A stretch of DNA of 64,000 nucleotides, taken from Mobula hypostoma (taxonomy: Eukaryota). The notes under the pieces are model-generated. The model saw only the letters and a program-made list of their open reading frames with translations. It made no database searches and had not been told where the DNA came from. Shown in pieces: positions 5,409-61,899 of this stretch; position 1 is the stretch's first letter; every line of letters starts with the position of its first letter. The translations under genes and the position numbers were made by a program. The stretch covers positions 27,468,001 to 27,532,000 of the forward strand of contig NC_086108.1 in the NCBI RefSeq assembly GCF_963921235.1, written 5' to 3'.

Positions 5409-5877
5409 AAAATCTTTTACTATGGCCAGGAATGCAGAGTTCATTCAGAATAAAAGTCTGAACTGGAATGAAATCTTCAAAGTGTTACCACTCAAGAGGT
5501 TAAAACATAGTTCAGAGGCCTCATAACGTACAAATGGAATTTCATATCAACTGAAACAAAGCAGGGAACATGCCAGGATTGGCAAGAGCCAGCTGGTGGG
5601 GTGGAAGGAAAGTTGGTTCAGTGATGGATTATCTAAGGAATGACAGTCAGTTCGAAGGATTGCCGAGGAGAGTCCTGTAGCACAGGCTGTGGTATGAATA
5701 TCCAGAATACAATAGATTCATATCACGACTCCTGGCTGCATGGGTTATTTTATGGTTGCTTGCCTTTGGAAATGTAAAATCTGCAACGCGTTGACAAATG
5801 AAGAGCTAAAGCTGGTAGCGTTCCACTGAGAACATGTCCATCAACTGATGATGTGGCAGTAACACAAATAGTGCTTT

Positions 5878-11967: not shown

Positions 11968-12087
11968 GTGGTTAACATCGGATTAGAGTGTCCTGCATTT
12001 ATTAGCTCTGTTTTTCCAGCATTTTCTATATTTCCTTTTTATAACAAATACTGCATTGTAACTGCATTTCAAATATTCCTCTGTTTT
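11968..12087 (+). repeat. Flanking direct repeat B; partner at 15444-15565; candidate long TSD
   Basis: ggattagagtgtcctgcatttattagctc...cattgtaactgcatttc versus ggattacagtgtcctgtatgtattagctc...cattgtaactgcttttc. Confidence 0.85.
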
Positions 12088-12157
12088 ACATAGAACATAG
12101 AACAGTACAGCACAGTACAGGCCCTTCGGCCCACAATGTTGTGCGGACCCTCAAACC
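12088..12157 (-). mobile_element. 70 bp CR1-type 3' tail fragment
   Basis: catagaacatagaacagtacagcacagtacaggcccttcggcccaca; ttttaca on both sides. Confidence 0.7.
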
Positions 12158-12177
12158 TTTTACATTGCTTTTACATT

Positions 12178-12378
12178 GCTGGAAATCACGAGCCAATGGG
12201 AAGTCACTTGGCCACCACTGCTGACCCACCAACTGGAGAGTGTACTGGTAAATGGTCGGGACACTCTATGAAGGTTGGGCAACACCTGACGATATCTGCC
12301 CCTGCCCAAAGACTATGGTTACCTCATCAGGTAACTGAAGAGTTCATCCCGGTGTATGATGCAAGCGACATCTGGTTC
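12178..12378 (+). repeat. Terminal direct repeat A, 5' copy; partner at about 15249-15445
   Basis: Ungapped alignment at offset 3071; I counted 14 mismatches in the first 60 nt. Confidence 0.9.
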
Positions 12379-15300
12379 ACTAGAGACTTCCAGGAAAGAC
12401 TGGATGGCAATCAAGAAAGGTCAGTGACGCTGAAAATACTGCTGACCTCCAGGAAGACTGACATGGGCACACAAGGCTAGCAACCCTGCGTGTAGCACTC
12501 ATAAGAGGCCACCATACAAGCTATGGATGAACTAAATACTCAATGCTAAAGAGTGATTTGGCCCATTGAGAAGAAAAGGGATCTTAAACCATCATGGCAA
12601 CCGAACAGGAGGGAAAGGGGGCCTTGCCACCTGAGAATTGAGGTAAAGACCCTGAACAAACAATTCAAAAACAGTTCACCTGATGAAAAAGAAGGTGTCA
12701 AAGATCTAACCAGCAAACTGCAGAATCAGCTGCGAAAGTGAAGAAGGGAGAAAGAGAGGAGAGTGCAGTTTGTTAAAAACCCATTCAGGTTCAGCAGGGC
12801 ACTTCAAAGCCAGCAAAAATCTGGCACCCTAACCAGCTCGAAGCAGGAGGTGGAAGGATTTCTGTCGGAATCCCCATAGGAATCAGGGAATAGAATTCAA
12901 TCAAAAAGTCCCCCAACCAAGAGTTGAATGTGGCAGAGCCCACATAGCAGGAGGTCCAGGATATCAGCAAGAGAGCAAAGTCATCTGCTGCCACAGGACC
13001 ATGTGGTATACAAGGTATATAAGAAATGCCCAAAACTCCTCCGGAGGTTGTGGAAGATAATGAGGAAGATTTGGACCAAAGGCTTTATTGCACCAAGCAG
13101 GAGAATGGCTGAAAGATGCTTTGTTCCCAAAGAAGAAGATTAGTTCACAATTACCCAGTCTAGGACAATCTCCCTCCTTAGCATGGAGTGCAAGATATTC
13201 TTCTCAGTGCCTACGAGAAGATTGACCTCTTATATCAAAACAACACATCCATTCAGAAGGGTGGCATCCTGGGTCTGTTTGGGTGCCTTGAACACTCCTC
13301 AATAATCAGCCGATTGATCCGCGAGGCCAGGTAAAAGAAAGGTGATCTAACAGCTCTCTGGTTAGACCTAGCCAATGCCTAAGGATCAATTCCACATATC
13401 CTCATCCAGGTTGGCCTGGACCACTACCATATCCTGCCAGTGACACAAGACATGATCACCAGCTACCTAGGAGGATTCAAGCTATGCTTTACTTCAACCC
13501 ACTTTACAACCAGGTGGCAAGACTTTCAAAAACAGGTTATAATTGGCTGTACCATCTCCCACATCTTGTTTGTCATGGGTATGAACCTCCCCATATGAGC
13601 AGCAGCAAATATAATCCGAGGCCCAGTGTTGGAGCCCGGCAAATGACAACCTGCATGCGGGGTTTCATGGATGACATCACAGTAACCACTGTAACACATA
13701 TCCAAGCAAGATGGATATTAGAAACCCTGAACAATGTAGCTACGTGGGCTAGGATGATCTTCAATTTGAGTAAGTCCAGATGCATGGTGATCAAGAAGGT
13801 CAAGGTTACTAGCAAGTTCAGTCTTCAATTACAGGGAGAAGCCATTCCATCCATAGAGAACAACCCAGTAAAGTGTCTTGGAGAGTGGTTAAATATAGCA
13901 ATGATGGACAGCACCAACATCTGCGACACTGTAAAGCAATCTGAAGAGTGGCTGAAGAAGAACAACAAAACCGGATTCCCTGATCAATTTAAGACATAGC
14001 TGTACCAACATTGTCTTCTACCAAGGCTGCTCTGGCTTTTCATGATGTACATGTTCTTAATGATCACTGTAAAGGGCATCAAGAGGAAGGTCAACAAACA
14101 CCTGTGGAGGTGGCTGGGGATTTCCCCAAGTTTTTCTGCAGTGAGGCTCTACATAAGATCAGGCCAGCTACAACTCCCGCTATCATTGGTAGTGGAGGAA
14201 GTTCAAGGTGGCAAAGTGTAGAGTTGTGTTAACACCGTGAGGCTCTGATGACAAGCTAACAAACCAAACAGGAGTCACAACAAGATTGGGCCAAAAGTAG
14301 GTCACCAACTCGACCATAGAAAAGGCAATGAGCTGGTCACTGGCAGCCTGTGCCTGGGACAGCAAGGGCTCAGCTCTGCACATTTCCAATGATGGGGGAG
14401 TGCAAGGGGTTAGTGTGATATGGTCCACGCAGAGGTACAGAACTGTGAGTAAGAAGGGCAGGGATCAAAGGCAGTGGAGTCGGAGTCACAAGGCACCGGA
14501 GTCGGAGTCACAAGGCACCTGGGTGAAATGGGATCTTCCCAAGAGCAAGATCACTTGCTTTGAAGACTGCAGACCTTCCACATTTCCTTCCTTCTGTGTA
14601 TGACGCTCTCCCTACACCATCACAGCTACACACATGGGGGCTGAGAGAGCACCCTAACTGCAAGCTTTGTGGTCAGTGGGGTTCACTGTCAGGATGCAAA
14701 GCAGCTTTAACACAAGGACGGTAGAGATGGCACCACGACAAGGTCCTGCTGTCCCTTGCTGACACACTGGAGTAGGAGCGTTGTAAAAAGAGACCAGCTG
14801 GCATTGTGGCAAACAGGGCAGTCATTTTCATCGAGGAGAGTGCCACGCCAATCATATCAAAGATACCTAAATCCAAGATGCTGCAAACTGCCAAATCCTG
14901 AGAGATGAGGGTCGATGTGGGGAGGAAGATACAGTTCCCAGAGGTGGTGCATCATACTGTGTCCACCAAAGACAAGAAAATTGTCCTGGGGGGAGTTCAC
15001 AGTACCATGCAAGGAGGATCATGAGAGGAAGACCCTAAAGTACCAGTCTTTAGTCCAGGAGGACAAAGGATGGCAGACGTGGCTATTCCCTGTGGAGATT
15101 GGCTGTAGAGGGTTCCCAGCAAGGTCAGCACGGAGGTTGTTGTCTGTGCTGGGCCTTGATGAAAAGAGCAAGAACCAAGCAGCTCACAGGATAGGGGAGG
15201 AAGCAGAAAGAGCCTCTTACTGGATATAGAGCAGGCGAGAAGAGTTGAGCTGGAAGTCAGGAGCAGATGGACAGTGACTTGACTGCCACTGCTGACCTGC

Positions 15301-15443
15301 CAGCCGGAGAGTGTAGTGGTTAAGTGTCGAGTCACTTGATGAAGGTTGGGTACCATCTGATGACATCTGCTCCTGACCAAAGGCTACAGTTACCTCAACA
15401 GGTAACTGAAGAGAGCACCCCAGTCTATGAAGTAAGCAAATAT
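12178..15443 (+). mobile_element. Decayed Hero/NeSL-like non-LTR retrotransposon (RT plus restriction-like endonuclease)
   Basis: Frameshifted motifs: WLDLANA*GSIPH, RGFMDDITV (RT), CKLCG..SGC..LTQGR*RWHHDKVL (zinc-knuckle region), EFTVPCKE..ERKTLKY..WLFPVEIGCRGF (endonuclease); ORF stop at 15275-15277. Confidence 0.85.
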
Positions 15444-16193
15444 GTGATTAGCACTGGATTACAGTGTCCTGTATGTATTAGCTCGGTTTATCCAGCACCT
15501 TCTATAATATTTCCTTTTATACTAAGTACTACATTGTAACTGCTTTTCCAATATTTCCCTGTTTTGTTCTTCCATTGCTTCTTGTGTTCATTTGTTGCAC
15601 TGATATTTTCCGAGAGGCCCTGGGTGCTATTGCAATATCTTTTCTAATTCTCTGCTGTACCTAGATTCTGCTTTACTTTATGCTAGTCTAGTAATAGTTG
15701 TTCTGATAAATCAGGGCCACAGGCATTTACGAAGGCTTCTATTTGCTTTTACAGTAATCTGACATAGTTTTATTGCAGCTGTAGTGCTTTTTTTTGGTTA
15801 TAAAGTACTATGCATTTGTGTATATCAACTTCTCTTTGCTGTTAAATTGCTTGCTTCAGTTACATTTGTGTTTACCATTTGCTATTAAATTTGTACTTGC
15901 TCTGTTGATGGTAATAGACAGGGAATTGTGTTAATTTTCTGCATTTCCTATATGGTATTATTGTACTGTTTAGAACAATTACATTCATCATTGCACCAAC
16001 TGCTGCGCAGTTTATCTGTATCACTGCGATAACCTCTGCTGCCTATTGGCAGTTCAGTATTTCCCCCAGTAATAAGCTGCTGCGATGCTGTCTATTGCAA
16101 TATTTTTGGTGCTGCTTAACTGTTAGTAAACTACTTTTGTCTCGATTGTGTTGCAGGTCATGAATTACCATGCTTCAATATGTCTTGTGCTGC

Positions 16194-23225: not shown

Positions 23226-25517
<2,292 letters not shown>

Positions 25518-29643: not shown

Positions 29644-31732
29644 AAAGAATAAATCTTGGCAAAAGAATAAATCAAGGAAGGTAGTGCACCCGTGGCTGAC
29701 AAGAGAAATTAGGGATAGTATCAATTCCAAAGAAGTAGCATACAAATTAGCCAGAGAAAGTGGCTCACCTGAGGACTAGGAGAAATTCAGAGTTCAGCAG
29801 AGGAGGACAAAGGGCTTAATTAGGAAGGGGAAAAAAGATTATGAGAGAAAACTGGCAGAGAACATAAAAACGGACTGTAAAAGCTTTTATAGATATGTAA
29901 AAAGGAAAAGACTGATAAAGACAAATGTAGGTCCCCTGCAGACAGAAACAGGTGAATTGATTATGGGGAGGAAGGACATGGCAGACCAATTGAATAATTA
30001 CTTTGGTTCTGTCTTCACTAAGGAGGACATAAATAATCTTCCAGAAATAGTAAGGGACAGAGGGTCCAGTGAGATGGAGGAACTGAGTGAAATACATGTT
30101 AGTAGGGAAGTGGTGTTAGGTAAATTGAAGGGATTGAAGGCAGATAAATCCCCAGGGCCAGATGGTCTGCATCCCAGAGTGCTTAAGGAAGTAGCCCAAG
30201 AAATAGTGCATGCATTAGTGATAATTTTTCAAAACTCGTTAGATTCTGGACTAGTTCCTGAGGATTGGAGGGTGACTAATGTAACCCCACTTTTTAAAAA
30301 AGGAGGGAGAGAGAAACCGGGGAATTATAGGCCGGTTAGCCTAACGTCGGTGGTGGGGAAACTGCTGGAGTCAGTTATCAAGGATGTGATAACAGCACAT
30401 TTGGAAAGCGGTGAAATGATCGGACAAAGTCAGCATGGATTTGTGAAAGGAAAATCATGTCTGACGAATCTCATAGAATTTTTTGAGGATGTAACTAGTA
30501 GAGTGGATAGGGGAGAACCAGTGGATGTGGTATATTTGGATTTTCAAAAGGCTTTTGACAAGGTCCCACACAGGAGATTAGTGTGCAAACTTAAAGCACA
30601 CGGTATTGGGGGTAAGGTATTGGTGTGGGTGGAGAATTGGTTAGCAGACAGGAAGCAAAGAGTGGGAATAAACGGGACCTTTTCAGAATGGCAGGCGGTG
30701 ACTAGTGGGGTACTGCAAGGCTCAGTGCTGGGACCCCAGTTGTTTACAATATATATTAATGACTTGGATGAGGGAATTAAATGCAGCATCTCCAAGTTTG
30801 CGGATGACACGAAGCTGGGTGGCAGTGTTAGCAGTGAGGAGGATGCTAAGAGGATGCAGGGTGACTTGGATAGGTTGGGTGAGTGGGCAAACTCATGGCA
30901 AATGCAATTTAATGTGGATAAATGTGAAGTTATCCACTTTGGTGGCAAAAATAGGAAAACAGATTATTATCTGAATGGTGGCCGATTAGGAAAAGGGGAG
31001 GTGCAACGAGACCTGGGTGTCATTATACACCAGTCATTGAAAGTGGGCATGCAGGTACAGCAGGCGGTGAAAAAGGCGAACGGTATGCTGGCATTTATAG
31101 CGAGAGGATTCGAGTACAGGAGCAGGGAGGTACTACTGCAGTTGTACAAGGCCTTGGTGAGACCACACCTGGAGTCTTGTGTGCAGTTTTGGTCCCCTAA
31201 TCTGAGGAAAGACATCCTTGCCATAGAGGGAGTACAAAGAAGGTTCACCAGATTGATTCCTGGGATGGCAGGTCTTTCATATGAAGAAAGATTGGATGAA
31301 CTGGGCTTGTACTCGTTGGAATTTAGAAGATTGAGGGGGGATCTGATTGAAACGTATAAGATCCTAAAGGGATTGGACAGGCTAGATGCGGGAAGATTGT
31401 TCCCGATGTTGGGGAGGTCCAGAACGAGGGGTCACAGTTTGAGGATAGAGGGGAAGCCTTTTAGGACCGAGATTAGGAAAAACTTCTTCACACAGAGAGT
31501 GGTGAATCTGTGGAATTCTCTGCCACAGCAAACTGTTGAGGCCAGTTCATTGGCTATGTTTAAGAGGGAGTTAGATATGGCCCTTGTGGCTACAGGGGTC
31601 AGGGGGTATGGAGGGAAGGCTGGGTTCTGAGTTGGATGATCAGCCATGATCATTATAAATGGCGGTGCAGGCTCGAAGGGCCGAATGGCCTACTCCTGCA
31701 CCTATTTTCTATGTTTCTATGTTTCTATGTTT
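29644..31732 (+). mobile_element. Young 5'-truncated CR1 LINE
   Basis: Uninterrupted 557 aa RT frame, 3' UTR and (ttctatgt)n tail; splits the Gypsy RT, cac duplicated at the junctions. Confidence 0.97.
29957..31630 (+). CDS. CR1 ORF2 reverse transcriptase portion, no endonuclease domain
   Basis: KSPGPDG, NYRPVSLTS, QHGF, YLDFQKAFD, GVLQGSVLGP, FADD, RDLGV. Confidence 0.9.
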   Translation: MIMGRKDMADQLNNYFGSVFTKEDINNLPEIVRDRGSSEMEELSEIHVSREVVLGKLKGLKADKSPGPDGLHPRVLKEVAQEIVHALVIIFQNSLDSGLVPEDWRVTNVTPLFKKGGREKPGNYRPVSLTSVVGKLLESVIKDVITAHLESGEMIGQSQHGFVKGKSCLTNLIEFFEDVTSRVDRGEPVDVVYLDFQKAFDKVPHRRLVCKLKAHGIGGKVLVWVENWLADRKQRVGINGTFSEWQAVTSGVLQGSVLGPQLFTIYINDLDEGIKCSISKFADDTKLGGSVSSEEDAKRMQGDLDRLGEWANSWQMQFNVDKCEVIHFGGKNRKTDYYLNGGRLGKGEVQRDLGVIIHQSLKVGMQVQQAVKKANGMLAFIARGFEYRSREVLLQLYKALVRPHLESCVQFWSPNLRKDILAIEGVQRRFTRLIPGMAGLSYEERLDELGLYSLEFRRLRGDLIETYKILKGLDRLDAGRLFPMLGRSRTRGHSLRIEGKPFRTEIRKNFFTQRVVNLWNSLPQQTVEASSLAMFKRELDMALVATGVRGYGGKAGF

Positions 31733-39204: not shown

Positions 39205-40530
39205 GAAACCCTTCTGGAAAGAAATGGATCCATCAGGCAGACACAGCATGGATTCAGCAAAGGCAAGTCCTGTTTGACAAACTTATTGGAGTTCATTGAG
39301 GATATAACAAGTGTAGTGGATAGAGGGGAACAGATGGATGTTATTTACTTGGATTTCCAGAAGTGTTTGATAAGGTGCCACATAAAAGAATTATCCATAA
39401 GATAAGGATGCACAGAGTTGGGGATGATGGATGCATGGACAGAGAATTGGTTAACCAATAGAAAGCAGAGAGTTGGGGTACATGGGTGTTGCTCTGGTTG
39501 GCAATCAATGGTGAGTGGTGTGACACAGGGGTTGGTTCACCTGCAACTGTCCATGATATACATGAATGATTTAGAAGGGGAAACCAAGTGTAGTGTATCT
39601 AAGTTTGCTGATGACACTAAATTGAGTGGAAAAGCAGACTATGCAGAGGATATGGGGAGTCTGCAGAGAGATATAGATAAGTTAGCTAAGTAGGCAAGGC
39701 TGGCAGATAGAGTACCATGTTGGTAATTGCGAGGTCATCCACTTTGGAAGGTAAAATGGAAGATGAGATTATTATTTGAATAGTAAAAGATTGCAGCATG
39801 CTCCTGTGCAAATGAACTTGGGAACGCTTGTGCATGAATCACAAAAGGTTGGTTTGCAGGTGCAGCAGGCTATCAAGAAGGCAAATGGAACGCTAGCCTT
39901 CATTGCTAGAGGGATTGAATTTAAGAGCAGGGAGGTTATGTTGCAAATGTATAGGGTACTGGTGAGGCTGCATCTGGAGTACTGCATGCAGTTCTGGTCT
40001 CCTTACTTGAGGAAGGATAGACTGCTTTGGAGGCAGTGCAGAGGAGGTCCACCAGGTTGATTTCAGAGATGAGAGGATTAGACTATGCGGAGAAATTAAG
40101 TCGCCTGGGATTGTACTTGCTGGAATTCAGAAGGACATGTGGAAATCTTATAGAAACATATACAATTATGAAAGAGGTAGATAAGAAAGAGGCAGGAAAG
40201 TCGTTTCCACTGGCAGGTGAGACAAGAACTAGGGGACATAGCCTCAAGATTCGGGGGAGAAGATCTAGGACGGAGATGAGGAGGAACTGCATTTCCCAGA
40301 GGGTGGTGAATCTGTGGAATTCTCTGCCCAGTGAAGCAGTGGAGGCTACCTCAGTAAATATATTTAAGAGAAGGTAGGATAGATTTTTACATAGTAGGGG
40401 AATTAAGGATTATGGGGGAAAGGCAGGTAGGTGGAGATGAATCCATGGTCAGATCAGCCATGATCTTATTGAATGGCGGAGCAGGCTTGACGGGCCAGAT
40501 GGCCTTCTCCTGCAAATATTTCTTACGTTC
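39205..40530 (+). mobile_element. 5'-truncated decayed CR1
   Basis: QHGFSKGKSCLTNL, KFADDTKL, LVRLHLEYCMQFWSP, RTRGHSLKI and 3' UTR. Confidence 0.92.
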
Positions 40531-50760: not shown

Positions 50761-53580
50761 CTGTACCTTCTCTGCAATGTGTAGCTGCAGTTCTCATTGG
50801 CTTATGTTAAAATGCAAAAGAAGATCAACATTAAAATTTATAAATCACTGTAAGCATGCGGAGTTAAAGGTAACAATACATTATCCTCTACATTAACCCT
50901 CTGTCTTTCTATGAACTCAGTAAATCATGGTGCATGAGCCGAACATTTCGGAGACCTCAATCACTGAGGGCTCTCTATTTTTCTTCTACAATGAAAGAAT
51001 AATAAAGGAAATAGAATATGTGGTTCAGGTCCCTTTCAGGGAAATAAAACACCTTTAATGTCAGAGTGAAATTGTCAGCATTGCCTTTGGTGCTTGCAAA
51101 TTTTGTATCTTTCTCAGGAGTATGAGGGAGACTACTGGAAATAAAATAACCCAGACAGGAACACAATATTTACGTCTTGGATGGGCTCTGAATTTAAATT
51201 AGACTATCCTGAATTCCATCTGTTAAATCATCCAGCATATGCGAATATTATCACACATTAACTACCCGCCTAACGTGCTACAGCTGGAGACAATGTGCCA
51301 TTTCTGGCAATTACTGGAGTTCTGCATCATCTCTACAATATCAAACAGCTGTAATAGGCTGCATCAACAATCTAAGCATGAGAGGATTGGTCCTATTTGG
51401 CAGAGCCTGGTTTTGTCACCTCATAGAGATCTACACTTCATTTCTTTTTTGTAATCCATTTTACAAATTTAGCCCTGCATGTTTTGCTTCCCCAAGTTCA
51501 GCAAAATCAACTGTTCCAATCTGAGCATTTTCATTTAATGGTTGACTGATATTGTCCTTTGTTTACTGAAACAATAATACAGCCCAATATATATTCAATC
51601 ATCCTGAAGTATGGTGTCTTCATAACAGTCAAGATGAGGTTTAGTTTATATTCCTAAGAAGATGTAAAAAAGTTCAAAGTACATTTATTATCAGATCATG
51701 TATACACTATGTATCCTTGAAACTCATCTCCTTTCAGTCAGCCACAAAACAAACAAACCTCAAAAGAACCCACCAAAAAGACCATCAAACACCCAATGCA
51801 TAGAGAAAGAAAAAAATAAATAACGCAAACAACAAAAGCAAGAAAATAGGTTCAGAACTAAAGCTTTATGAAAGATATGAAGCCAGGTGTCACTGCAGCT
51901 GGTGCTGGCAACAGTTCCAGTTCATACCAAAGCCGAGTAAACATTGCGAGACCATAGGCACAAAGCCAGCCATTACTGCAGCTGACAATACACTCCAGCA
52001 TAGGGACAGATGTTGCATTTTCTCTGCTGGTTCCGTGGTGCAGAAGGGAAAGAGCAAGGTGAGGAATACAGTAGTCACAGGGGATTCTATAACGAGGGGA
52101 ACAGACAGGAGGTTCTGTCAGTCTGATAGAGATACCCGCATGGTGTGTTGCCTGCCAGGTGTCAGGGTATGGGATGTCTCAGATCAGGTGCAGAGTATTC
52201 TGAAGGGAGAGGGTGAACAGCCAGAAGTCTTGCTACATGTTGGTACCAATGACATAGGCAGAATAAGGGAGGAGGTCCTGAAGGGAGAACTCGGGGAGTT
52301 TGGTAGAAACATGGAACATAGAAACAAAAAAAACCTACAGCACAATAAAGGCCCTTCGGCCCACAATGTTGCCGAAAATGTACTTACTTTAGAAATTACC
52401 TCGGATTACCCTATTTTTCTAAGCTCCATGTACTTATCCAAGAGCCTTTTATAATACCCTATTGTATCCGCCTCCACAACCATCTCCATCACCCCATTCC
52501 ATGCACTCACCATTCTCTGCATAAAAAAACTTACCCCTGAGATCTCCTCTGTACCTGCTTCTGAGCACCTTAAAACTGTGTCCTCTCGTGCTAGCCATCT
52601 CAGCCCTGGGAAAAGATCTGTATCCACATGATCAATGCTTCTCATCATCTTGTACACCTCTCTCAGGTCACCTCTCATCCTCCATCGCTCCAAGGAAAAA
52701 AAGCCAAGTTCACTCAACCTATTCTCATAAGGCATGCTCCCCAATCCAAGCAACATCCTTGTAAATCTCCTCTGCACCCTTTCTATGGTTTCCACATCCT
52801 TCCTGTAGTGCGGCGACCAGAACTGAGCACAGTACTCCAAGTGGGGTCTGACCAGGGTCCTACATAGCTGCAACATTACCTCTTGGCTCTTAAACTCAAT
52901 CCCACAGTTGATGAAGGCCAATGCTCCATATGCCTTCTTAACCACAGAGTCAACCTGCGCAGCAGCTTTGAGTGTCTTATGGACTCAGACCCCAAGATCC
53001 CTCTGATCCTCCACACTGTCAAGAGTCTTGCCATTAATACTATATTCTGCCATCATATTTGACCTACCAAAATGAACCACCCCACACTTATCTGGGTTGA
53101 ACTCCATCTGCCACTTCTCAGCCCAATTTTGCATCCTATTAATGTCCTGCTGTAACCTCTGACAGCCCTCCACACTTTCCACAACAACCCCAACCATCAG
53201 GAAATTTATTAACCCATCTCTCCACTTCCTCATCAAGGTCATTTATAAAAATAACGAAGAGTAGGGGTCCCAAAACAGATCCCTGAGGTGCACCACTGGT
53301 CACTAACTTCCATGCAGAATATGACCCATCTATAACCACTATTTGCCTTCTGTGGGAAAGACAGTTCTGGATCCACAGAGCAATATCCCCTTGGATCCCA
53401 CGCCTCTTTATTTTCTCAATAAGCCTTGCATGGGGTACCTTATCAAATGCCTTGCTGAAATCCATATATGCTACATCTACTGCTCTGTCTTCATCAATGT
53501 GTTTAGTCACATGCTCAAAAAATTCAATCAGGTTTGTAAGGCATGACCTACCTTTGATAAAGCCATTCTGACTATTCCTA

Positions 53581-54226
53581 ATGGCATTTATAGCGAGAGG
53601 TTTCGAGTACAGGAGCAGGGAGGTACTACTGCAGTTGTACAAGGCCTTGGTGAGACCACACCTGGAGTATTGTGTGCAGTTTTGGTCCCCTAATCTGAGG
53701 AAAGACATCCTTGCCATAGAGGGAGTACAAAGAAGGTTCACCAGATTGATTCCTGGGATGGCAGGACTTTCATATGAAGAAAGACTGGATGAACTGGGCT
53801 TGTACTCGTGGGAATTTAGAAGATTGAGGGGGAATCTGATTGAAACGTATAAGATCCTAAAGGGATTGGACAGGCTAGATGCAGGAAGATTGTTCCCGAT
53901 GTTGGGGAAGTCCAGAACGAGGGGCCACAGTTTGAGGATAGAGGGGAAGCCTTTTAGGACCGAGATTAGGAAAAACTTCTTCACACAGAGAGTGGTGAAT
54001 CTGTGGAATTCTCTGCCACAGGAAACAGTTGAGGCCAGTTCATTGGCTATATTTAAGAGGGAGTTAGATATGGCCCTTGTGGCTACAGGGGTCAGGGGGT
54101 ATGGAAGGAAGGCTGGGGCGGGGTTCTGAGTTGGATGATCAGCCATGATCATAATAAATGGCGGTGCAGGCTCGAAGGGCCGAATAGCCTACTCCTGCAC
54201 CTATTTTCTATGTTTCTATGTTTCTA
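53581..54226 (+). mobile_element. Young CR1 3' fragment, same subfamily as 29644-31732
   Basis: About 16 differences counted by eye over about 650 bp versus 31086-31732; same tail. Confidence 0.95.
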
Positions 54227-55576
54227 TATTATGCCTCTCCAAATGTTCATAAATCCTGCCTCTCAGGATCTTCTCCATCAACTTACCAACCACTGAAGAA
54301 AGACTCACTGGTCTATAATTTACTGGGCTATCTCTACTCCTTTCTTGAATAATGGATCAACATATGCAACCCTCCAATCCTCCAGAACCTCTCCCTTCTT
54401 CACTGATGGTATAAAGATCTTTGCCAGAGGCTCAGCAATCTCCTCCCTAACCTCCCACAGTAGCCTAGGGTATATTTCTTCCAGTCCCGGTGACTTATCC
54501 AACTTGATGCTTTCCAAAATCTCCAGCATATCCTCTTTCTTAATGTCTATATGCTCAAGCTTTTCAGTCCACTGTAAATCATCCCTACAATCACAAAGGT
54601 CCTTTTCTGTACTGAATACTGAGGCAAAATATTCATTAAGTACCTCCGCTATCTCCTCTTGTTCCATACCCACTTTTCCACTGTCAAACTTGATTGGTCC
54701 TATTTTCTCACATAGTATCCTTTTGCACTTCACATATTTATAGAATGCCTTGGGGTTTTCCTTAATCCTGCTCACCAATGCTTTCTCGTGGCCCCTTTTG
54801 GCTCTCCTAATTTCATTCTTAAGCTTCCTCCTGCTAGCCTTATAATGTTCTAGATCTCTATCATAACAAAGGTTTTTGAACCTTTTGTAAGCTCTTCTTT
54901 TCTTCTTGACTAGATTTTCAACTGCCTTTGTACACCACGGTTCTTGTACCCTACCATCCTTTCCCTGTTTCTTTGGAACGTACTTGTGCAGAACGCCATG
55001 CAAGTATCCCCTGAACATTTGCCACATTTCTGCCATACATTTCCCTGAGAACATCTGTTCCCAATTTATGTTTCCAAGTTCCTGCCTGATAGCTTCATAT
55101 TTCCCCTTACTCCAATTAAATGCTTTCCTAACTTTTCTGTTCCTATCCCTCTCCAATGCTATGGTAAAGGATATAGAATTGTGATCACTATCTCCAAAAT
55201 GCTTTTCCACTGAGAGACCTGACACCTGACTAGGTTCATTTCCCAATACCAGATCAAGTACAGCCTCTCCTCTTGCAGGCTTATCTATATATTATGACAG
55301 GAAACCTTCCTGAACACACCTAACAAGCTCCATCTCATCTAAACACCTCACTCTAGGGAGATGCCAAATAACACTGGGGAAATTAAAATCCCCCAGCATG
55401 ACAACCTGTTATTAGTGCACCGTTCCAGAATCTGTCTCCCTATCTGCTCCTTGATGTCCCTGTTACTATTGGGTGGTGTATAAAAAAACACCCAGTAGAG
55501 TTTTTGACCCTTTCCTGTTTCTAACTTCCACCCACAGAGACTCTGTATACAATCCCTCCATGACTTCCTCCTTTTC

Positions 55577-59800: not shown

Positions 59801-61899
59801 AAGTATAAGCAAAAGAGAGGGCATACAAGGAAGCCAAAGCCAGTGGGAAGCTTTTAAAAACTTGCAGAAGGAAACTAAGAAGGTCATTAGGAAGGAAAAG
59901 ATGAATTGTGAAAGGAAGGTGGCGACTACTATCAAAGAAGATACTAAAAGCTTTTTAAGTATATACAGGGTAAAAGTGAGTCGAGGGTAGATATAGGACA
60001 AATAGAAAACGATACTGGAGATATTGTAATGATAGACACAGAGATGACAGAGGATCTGAATGCATATTTTGCATCTGTCTTCACAGTGGAAGATATCTGC
60101 AGTATTCCAGAGATTCAAGAGTGTCAGGCAAGTGGAGTATGTGCAGTGAAAATTACGACTGAGAAAGGTGCTCAGGAAACTTAATGGTCTGAGGGTGGAT
60201 AAATCTCCTGGACCTGATGGAATGCACCCTCGGGTTCTGAAGGAAGTAGCTAGAAAGATTGCAGAGGCATTAACAATGATTTTCAAGAATCGATAGATTC
60301 TGGCATTGTACCTGATGTCTGGAAAATTGCAAAAGTTACACCGCTATTTATGGAGGGTGGGAGGCAGCAGAAAGGAAACTATAGTCCTGTTAGCCTGACG
60401 TCAGTGGTTGGGAAGTTGCTGGAATCGATTGTTAAGGATGAGATTACAGAGTACCTGGAGGCACATTACAAGATAAGCCAAAGCCGGCATGATTTCCTGA
60501 TAGGAAAATTCTGCCTGACAAACCTACTGCAATTTTTTGAGGAAATTACAAGGAGGGTAGACAAAGGAGATGTAGTAGATGTAGTGTACTTAGATTTTCA
60601 GAAGGCCTTTGACAAGGTGCCACTCATGAGGCTGCTTAGCAAGATAAGAGCCCATGGAATTACAGGGGAATTACTAACATGGGTGGAGCATTGTCTGGTC
60701 GGCAGAAAACAGAGAGTGAGAATAAAAGGATTCCATTCTGGCTGGCTGCCAGTTACCAGTGGAGTTCCACAGGGGTCGGTGTTGGGACTGCTGATTCTTA
60801 TGATGTATGTCAATGATTTGGACTATGGGATTAATGGATTTTGGCTAAATTTGCCAATGATACAAAGCTAAGTGGAGGAGCGGGTAGTGTTGAGGAAACA
60901 GAGAGCCTGCAGAGAGACTTAGATAGTTTAGGGGAATGGGCAAAGAAGTGGCAAATGAAATACAATGTTGGAAAGTATATGGTCATGCACTGTGGTGGAA
61001 GAAATAAACAGGCAGACTAATATTTAGATGGGGAGATGCAAAGGGACTTGGGAGTCCTTGTGCAGGATATGCTAAAGATTAACCTCCAGGTTGACTCGGT
61101 GGTGTGGAAGGCAAACGTAATGTTAGCATTCATTTCAAGAGGTATAGAATATAAGAGCAGGGATGTGATGTTGAGGCTCCCAAAGGGCACTTCTGAGACC
61201 ACAAGGAATATTGTGTACAGTTTTGGGCTCCTTATTTTAGAAAGGATATACTGACATTGGAGTAGGTTCAGAGAAGATTCACAAGAATGATTCCAGGAAT
61301 GAAAGGGTTACCGTATGAAGAAAGTCTGGCAGCACCTGGGCTGTATTCCCTGGAGTTCGGGAGAATGAGGGGTGATCTCATAGAAACATTCCAAATGTTA
61401 AAAGGCCTGAACAGATTAGATATGGCAAAGTTATTTCCCATGGTAGGGAATTCTAGAACAAGAGGGCACGACTTCAGGATTGAAGGATATCCATTTGGAA
61501 CAAAGAACCAGAGAAATTACTTTAGTCAGAGGGTGGTAAATCTGTGGAAATTGTTGCCACGAACAGCTATGGAGGCCAAGTCATTGGGTGTATTTAAGAC
61601 AGAGATAGATAGGTTCTTGATTACCCAGGGTATCAAAGGATATGAGGTGAAGGCAGGGGATTGGAGATGACTGGAAGAATTGGATCAGCCCATGATTGAA
61701 TGGCAGAGCAGACTCGATGGTTCAAATGGCCTACTCCTGTTCTTATATCTTATGGTCTTATGGAATTTGGTATACTTCTCCTAACTCTGTGTACTATATT
61801 CAGAACATCTCCACTGTGTAAGATTGGCTTATCAATTCGCAGAGACTTCTGGATCACTCCACAAGAGAAACTCTGTGTTTGTAGCTGCTTGTCGTTTTA

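Follow-up and report, generated by a model that had tools for sequence, protein, structure and literature searches.

How does a retrotransposon that has one open reading frame (ORF) come to carry its 3' tail a second time, ahead of its 5' leader, and why is the whole unit enclosed in a further repeat? The question is raised by a decayed Hero-type element in a 64,000-nt stretch of Mobula hypostoma contig NC_086108.1, here called the window; all coordinates are positions in the window on its forward strand, and features lie on the plus strand unless stated otherwise. The element follows the order B-A-body-A-B, where A is the repeated tail and B the outer repeat, so that A resembles a long terminal repeat (LTR) and is referred to as a pseudo-LTR. 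Our preferred reading, to which we give a probability of roughly 0.58, is that the locus holds a dead, old Hero-type insertion for which a predicted ribozyme in the tail would have cut the RNA of the unit, priming would have taken place internally, and copying would have run past one unit. What the window preserves is a fossil copy.

The repeats at the window locus

Repeat A aligns between 12178-12371 and 15249-15443 with 152 matches, 42 mismatches and one gap near its end (78% identity over 194 bp), and repeat B between 11968-12087 and 15444-15565 with 100 matches and 19 mismatches (84% identity). Both repeats are real, with local alignment scores far above those of shuffled sequences (222 for A against a best of 34 among 200 shuffles; 149 for B against 46.5), and neither has a further copy anywhere else within the window. 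The initial annotation had described A as ungapped over about 200 bp and as beginning about nine codons before the ORF stop; the first point holds for 194 bp except for the gap near the end, and the second agrees with the measured onset, 26 nt upstream of the stop (15275-15277). By alignment and profile, the left copy of A comprises the last nine codons and the whole 3' untranslated region (UTR), placed before the 5' leader. The right copy contains the ORF end and the 3' UTR and finishes, without poly(A), at the usual 3' boundary of the family; this right end of the element corresponds, to the base, to the left tail/leader junction.

The left copy of B is interrupted by a minus-strand repeat tail at 12092-12157, which we take to be of the CR1 type. 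It is bounded by an 8-bp duplication (12084-12091 and 12158-12165) and is present in high copy, with a summed depth of about a million and thousands of loose ends in contigs from sequencing runs; its sequence and depth mark it as a later insertion. When it is excluded, the repeat alignment of left B (11968-12091, ending with 12166-12180) and right B (15444-15579, from the first base after the element 3' end) extends to about 136 bp, and the last 3 nt of the left copy are also the start of A, a microhomology at the 5' junction. B had been said to nearly abut A once the CR1 tail is removed, and the two in fact overlap by these 3 nt. Divergence is 22% in A and 16% in B, a difference that is not significant (Fisher p=0.24); the earlier estimate by eye of 20-25% for both fits A and is too high for B.

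Tail before leader as a family trait

We compared the locus with 83 related loci from public contigs, 23 of which contain a leader start; 12 of these leaders trained the profile. The tail profile lies directly upstream of the leader in 19 of the 23, and two of the other four have shorter tail pieces (37 exact nt in L056, and 20 nt with CUGAGGA in L055-minus). A 37-bp repeat in L056 was rejected as a target-site duplication (TSD), as it is the element's own tail. The initial annotation had asked how often a copy of the 3' end precedes the 5' end in other copies, and the answer makes it nearly certain that the tail-to-leader junction is family-wide.

Since the pseudo-LTR is a family trait, A is not a one-off local accident. 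This bears on the possibility that a local duplication after insertion made both repeats: other copies and other families carry the tail upstream of the leader, which refutes the idea for A, and the order B-A...A-B is not that of a tandem duplication. In its favor, no long TSD was seen at 21 other loci, so that a repair-type duplication may account for B alone. As an account of both repeats, we regard it as highly improbable.

Among 46 tails, the leader follows in 18 loci and unrelated DNA in 28. The family's 3' ends, which have no poly(A), lie 0-8 nt ahead of the leader hairpin, and in distant families the tail/leader junctions are colinear and show no added bases. L056 and L057, whose flanks differ, terminate at one and the same base, and in L056 that base also precedes the leader; other copies, compared by eye, end 3-7 nt short of bases kept by junction copies (L011/L032 and L054/L009). 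With z from -1 to +0.9, the stability of the short leader hairpin is unremarkable, and it is therefore its position alone that suggests a role in priming. Summed depth is higher over A than over the leader, with the qualification that contig depth is not readable as copy number.

A two-step or self-targeting history, in which a short copy made B-A-B and a full copy then inserted exactly at its 3' end, would yield the same final layout, and Penelope elements are said to insert beside earlier copies (PMC6765202, in the part available to us). It would, however, require a stump in advance of nearly every leader, and neither the 28 tails followed by unrelated DNA nor the absence of a duplication at the A/leader junction agrees with it. 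We consider this history very unlikely.

An end-to-end template jump accounts for the junction in another way: the reverse transcriptase (RT) would finish a linear RNA at the leader and then jump to another Hero RNA at its 3' end, with the ribozyme having a different role, for example the trimming of read-through RNA. Template jumping is documented for R2, and R2-type enzymes jump without homology, according to the sections of PMC12203849 available to us. At L001:85-7300, moreover, two Hero families that are 68% identical stand head to tail through a tail/leader junction, and A is nominally more diverged than B. Against such a jump stand the colinear junctions without added bases and the 3' ends that fall short of bases kept in junction copies; the difference in divergence is the non-significant one given above, and the switch in L001, which adjoins a highly conserved leader motif, may reflect either a genuine tandem of two families or a chimera produced by assembly at that motif. 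We find the template jump quite unlikely.

Separately, two Hero copies lie head to head about 450 nt apart at L055:3048-3660, one of them with a stump of 20 nt or more.

A hammerhead-type fold inside repeat A

A descriptor with the order cleavage site, GAAA, CUGANGA and with stems I and III matched 38 times in the 83 loci, in every case at the tail position and in sense orientation; shuffles gave 0-3 matches, and a set of 120 viral stretches, picked for containing these core words, gave none. GAAAC and CUGANGA are near-invariant in the aligned tails. We built a structure-blind alignment (A2) of 32 sequences from 30 of the 38 matches and the two window copies, leaving out the first copy of L018, L046, L051, L057, L063 and L072 as near-duplicates and L020 and L080 for their shortened inner segment; a further alignment (A3) joined 20 close loci to the window. 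In A2, the four core helices are 93% paired and 18 of their 22 pairs change on both sides (0 of 500 shuffles), while the same helices slid as controls are 31-48% paired. Stems I and III are partly selected by the descriptor, whereas stem II (91% paired) and the extra, fourth helix (92%) are not required by it and are independent. Two further helices are 91% paired, with 15 of 17 pairs covarying, and all six helices use separate nucleotides without mutual conflict.

The relatives keep the whole hammerhead core, that is, CUGANGA, GAAA, the pairs G10.1-C11.1 and A15.1-U16.1, and NUH, and the pair 15.2-16.2 covaries. The core is also near-invariant in 18 copies found by the profile only, with G12 in 12 of 15 and at most one exception at every other position; N7 is variable, and at H17, 15 of 16 copies have A, C or U and one has G. 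Of 48 distinct ORF ends, 44 are followed by the motif according to the profile (45 of 49 rows, L050 counting twice); among loci that did not train it, the profile finds the motif in 18 of 21. Of the four ORF ends that it missed, L078 passes the descriptor, L075 has the motif by eye, L058 is truncated, and L083, at 25% identity, has none.

The connectivity of the fold is unusual in the position of stem II, whose 5' strand lies upstream and opens with G10.1, 20-21 nt before the cut. CUGANGA runs straight into a long helix, the partner strand of which leads via a hairpin to G10.1, forming a four-way junction. A classic type II hammerhead reading was rejected on the pairing in the alignment. Rfam gave no matches at E<=1 in 13 loci and one chance-level match in the window stretch.

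Descriptor, profile and alignment locate two decayed copies of the fold in the window. The left copy spans 12178-12306, with G10.1 at 12223, the predicted cut after 12244, the GAAA position at 12258-12261 (A13 and A14 lost) and CUGANGA at 12286-12292. The right copy spans 15256-15377, with its closing helix at 15256-15269/15364-15377, G10.1 at 15294, the predicted cut after 15315, the GAAA position at 15329-15332 (A14 and A15.1 lost) and CUGANGA at 15357-15363. GAAA is thus lost in both and is kept in a paralogous contig of the host family. We think it quite probable that the fold in the tail is a self-cutting hammerhead, as modeled here, and that it is active in live relatives; its place inside A offers a mechanism for the A-body-A layout.

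The fold might instead be a non-cutting dock for the element protein, perhaps derived from a hammerhead, with the partial tandem arising by internal priming on uncut read-through RNA of tandem copies. It is located in the 3' UTR, where the proteins of long interspersed nuclear elements (LINEs) bind, its A9-10.1 link is split, and a Penelope element that was tested in vitro inserts without need for its ribozyme, being unaffected by ribozyme mutants and giving no reads that end at the cut (PMC11167929). The conservation, however, obeys hammerhead rules position by position, with a free N7, A, C or U at the unpaired cut site and the pairs listed above, including the covarying 15.2-16.2, and six helices on separate nucleotides leave no conflict with a ribozyme; a conflict does arise with the published stem II, and it disappears once the upstream strand is used. 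We judge docking to be unlikely.

A small palindromic hairpin follows the fold in the window, at 12316-12341 and 15383-15408. The same hairpin, with changed sequence, occurs in L001, L002 and L018 and is absent from more distant families.

Repeat B as host DNA

B matches none of the 83 related loci, and at 15458, 15475 and 15526 it has single-contig (flank) depth in all four runs. It abuts both element junctions, and paralogous contigs diverge from the window stretch at 15430-15439. The possibility, raised in the initial annotation, that B belongs to the element consensus is thereby contradicted. Contigs of the four runs, from three organisms, contained no empty site, and in all three the element 3' end is joined to B. 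Judging from these sequence comparisons, B is single-locus host DNA, most likely a rare long TSD of about 136 bp. The rotifer element R9 reportedly has an exceptionally long TSD of 126 bp, a precedent within the same enzyme group. The earlier proposal of one old insertion from a circular or tandem RNA, or through a template jump, stands as regards the old insertion and B, which looks like a long target duplication.

Two candidate TSDs at other loci were rejected: a 137-bp repeat around L002 belongs to a 60-bp host tandem array, and a weak score at L057 reflects noise in AT-rich sequence.

Proposed copying cycle

From the layout and the conserved fold, we infer that cleavage, circle formation and internal priming may take place in Hero elements. 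Read-through RNA of an A-body-A copy would be cut in both A copies, releasing a monomer with its start 128 nt upstream of the leader; this monomer would be ligated into a circle, or its ends would be bridged by an end-to-end RT jump. Target-primed reverse transcription would then start at the tail/leader boundary and copy the tail, the ORF, the leader and the tail again, stopping at variable points. In the window copy, it would have run 194 nt into the second tail, 67 nt past the predicted cut, and such a run past the cut would rebuild a complete upstream ribozyme. A second nick about 136 bp away would have duplicated B, which was joined through the 3 nt of microhomology. The insertion of the CR1-type tail into left B and the decay of the core in both copies came later. 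Internal priming has been shown for a Penelope element (PMC11167929).

The upstream stumps range from tens of bases to more than 1 kb, and those that are delimited start at about +2 from the predicted cut (L014), at -67 (the window), or with 0.85-1.05 kb of ORF (L032 and L019). The window stump, extending 67 nt past the cut, needs RNA continuity across it. The L014 stump (5470-5590) follows unrelated host DNA and has its start some 2 nt downstream of the predicted cut, as expected from a linear RNA that was cut; this is a single case.

Several observations weigh against the proposed cycle. A stump starting at the predicted cut was found in just one of the few delimited stumps, and the cross-family join in L001 is not obtainable from one circle. 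No clear TSD was found in the 21 other loci, most of which are poorly delimited. Many of the loci come from few assemblies, and at least six are collapsed short-read contigs. The avoidance of G at H17 gives p=0.06 in the held-out copies alone, and the four-way junction is free of unpaired bases in just 17 of 34 copies (0.5 in shuffles). The published type-SGC stem II had to be rejected, being 51% paired with its first pair unpaired in 29 of 32 sequences, and the break at A9/10.1 has no precedent in the literature covered: Eckert et al. assume, in the portion of their paper available to us, that the CUGANGA block is indivisible (PMC10085705). The Penelope result cited above points in the same direction.

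The cycle with a predicted tail ribozyme and internal priming remains the reading that we prefer for the window copy. A broader claim can be formulated for the clade: Hero elements would be R2-type LINEs that have converged on the strategy of Penelope, replicating through internal priming on a circular RNA made by the ribozyme. They would also have spread through animal genomes an active, non-circularly permuted hammerhead whose connectivity, with a four-way junction separating stem II from CUGANGA, would be the seventh found in nature. We advance this claim tentatively, slightly on the doubtful side of even.

The element body and its classification

The conserved 5' leader (12372-12540) opens with the short hairpin, and its first base directly follows the usual insertion end. 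The leader profile matches 12369-12531 (E 7e-28), with 81% identity to L018. At 12536-12544 there is an internal deletion site, where about 530 nt relative to L018 are missing, including the N-terminal zinc-finger region; L018 aligns over 1-323 and then from 852 onward. The broken single ORF (12568-15277) carries several frameshifts and stops and runs in the order RT, CCHC knuckle remnant and restriction-like endonuclease region, with decayed motifs. Its pieces are 43-63% identical to intact proteins of fishes and lancelets (tblastn), the best matches in the Protein Data Bank are R2 proteins (E 6e-34), and the Pfam matches, RVT_1 (E 9e-4) and zf-RVT (E 8e-3), are both under cut-off. The relatives agree, motif by motif and by eye, with the HERO-2_DR row of a published alignment (PMC5678591 supplement, in the part available to us). 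The initial annotation had proposed a Hero/NeSL-like element; the protein relatives and this comparison by eye support a decayed Hero-type retrotransposon, Hero rather than NeSL.

Integrase, RNase H and protease domains were found neither in the eight window ORF pieces nor in the relatives, and an LTR retrotransposon was rejected, the required domains, a short TSD and TG...CA ends being absent. The telomerase-like RT with GIY-YIG endonuclease, hallmark of Penelope, was likewise not found in the window ORF or its relatives, and the viral contigs searched contained no protein relative. Hero copies have no fixed target site, as indicated by the unrelated flanks after 28 of 46 tails and by the different flanks of L056 and L057.

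Further observations concern the body and its relatives. A strongly conserved 45-nt purine-rich motif, possibly a translation or binding signal, ends the leader before the zinc-finger region in distant families (L001:3783-3828 and equivalents) and is deleted from the window copy. In run X1, one contig reads across the internal deletion (window 12394-12770) with 22 differences and 18 gaps, other X1 contigs matching the window exactly; the deletion may be common to another copy besides that in the window. A recent 22-bp tandem duplication lies in the dead ORF at 14468-14519, where a 98%-identical contig of run X5 has 23 gaps. The more distant relative P0016 (37% identity) has an extra N-terminal domain annotated PF02902. 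L080-L083 are Hero sequences within bacterial genome records, likely host contamination, and the genome behind L080 carries one copy only. Other decayed LINE fragments, of an unrelated RT type, occupy window positions 23800-24860, 29700-31730, 39240-40530, 53580-54230 and 60180-61760, two of them 97% identical.

Novelty and implications

Hero elements, pseudo-LTRs and permuted hammerheads are known kinds, and it is their combination, together with the split core, that appears to be new. The literature searched ties neither a hammerhead nor terminal repeats to Hero and does not describe this connectivity; a mention in, for example, Repbase Reports is possible. If the proposal is correct, Hero, a little-studied sister of the R2 elements used for gene insertion, gains a defined RNA cycle, one at odds with the textbook view of LINEs, in which priming occurs at the RNA 3' end. 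The assumption of an unsplittable CUGANGA block would be broken, the failure of descriptor searches of genomes to find the fold would be explained, and non-circularly permuted hammerheads would move from anonymous metatranscriptomes to animal genomes, with a proposed job. Hero would also allow an independent look at the role of hammerheads within pseudo-LTRs, a question still open.

Comparison with known systems

The described members of the Hero clade (HERO-2_DR, HEROTn and HERO-1_BF) likewise encode RT, CCHC knuckle and restriction-like endonuclease in a single ORF (PMC4640811, PMC3636483, PMC9004415, PMC5678591), and, in the portions of these papers available to us, they also share collinear RT motifs (by eye), fish and lancelet hosts and the lack of a fixed target. 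Unlike here, the available portions of PMC4640811, PMC3636483 and PMC9004415 say nothing of terminal redundancy, of internal priming or of a ribozyme.

Penelope-like elements share the partial-tandem layout, a hammerhead motif in the terminal repeat and fixed internal 3' ends (PMC11167929; PMC6765202, in part). They differ in their telomerase-like RT and GIY-YIG endonuclease, so that Hero would work alike without being a member. Their hammerheads are of the classic order and often minimal, whereas the Hero fold is large, has six helices and follows a non-circular order.

The closest match in order is to the type-SGC hammerheads, including HRIMA-1 (Eckert et al. 2023, PMC10085705). As far as the available text of that paper goes, they have the same succession of cleavage site, GAAA and CUGANGA, the same short linker from the stem I 5' strand to the stem II 3' strand, and covarying stems I and III. 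Their stem II 5' strand, however, follows CUGANGA; in Hero, CUGANGA enters another helix and the strand in question is found upstream, 20-21 nt before the cut. They come from metatranscriptomes, with none reported there from genomes of known organisms except one weak type-GCS case, whereas the Hero fold is found in animal retrotransposons.

R2 belongs to the same enzyme group and, according to the available sections of PMC12203849, combines ribozyme processing of read-through RNA with template jumping. Its ribozyme resembles that of hepatitis delta virus and lies at the 5' end, and R2 and R9 are specific to ribosomal DNA and lack a repeated tail, unlike Hero. Retrozymes, as presented in the available part of a preprint (bioRxiv 10.64898/2026.07.22.740005), are non-coding, carry classic type I hammerheads and are linked to Penelope elements, in which they differ from Hero; their hammerhead-delimited monomers have been proposed to circularize and re-insert, as we propose here.

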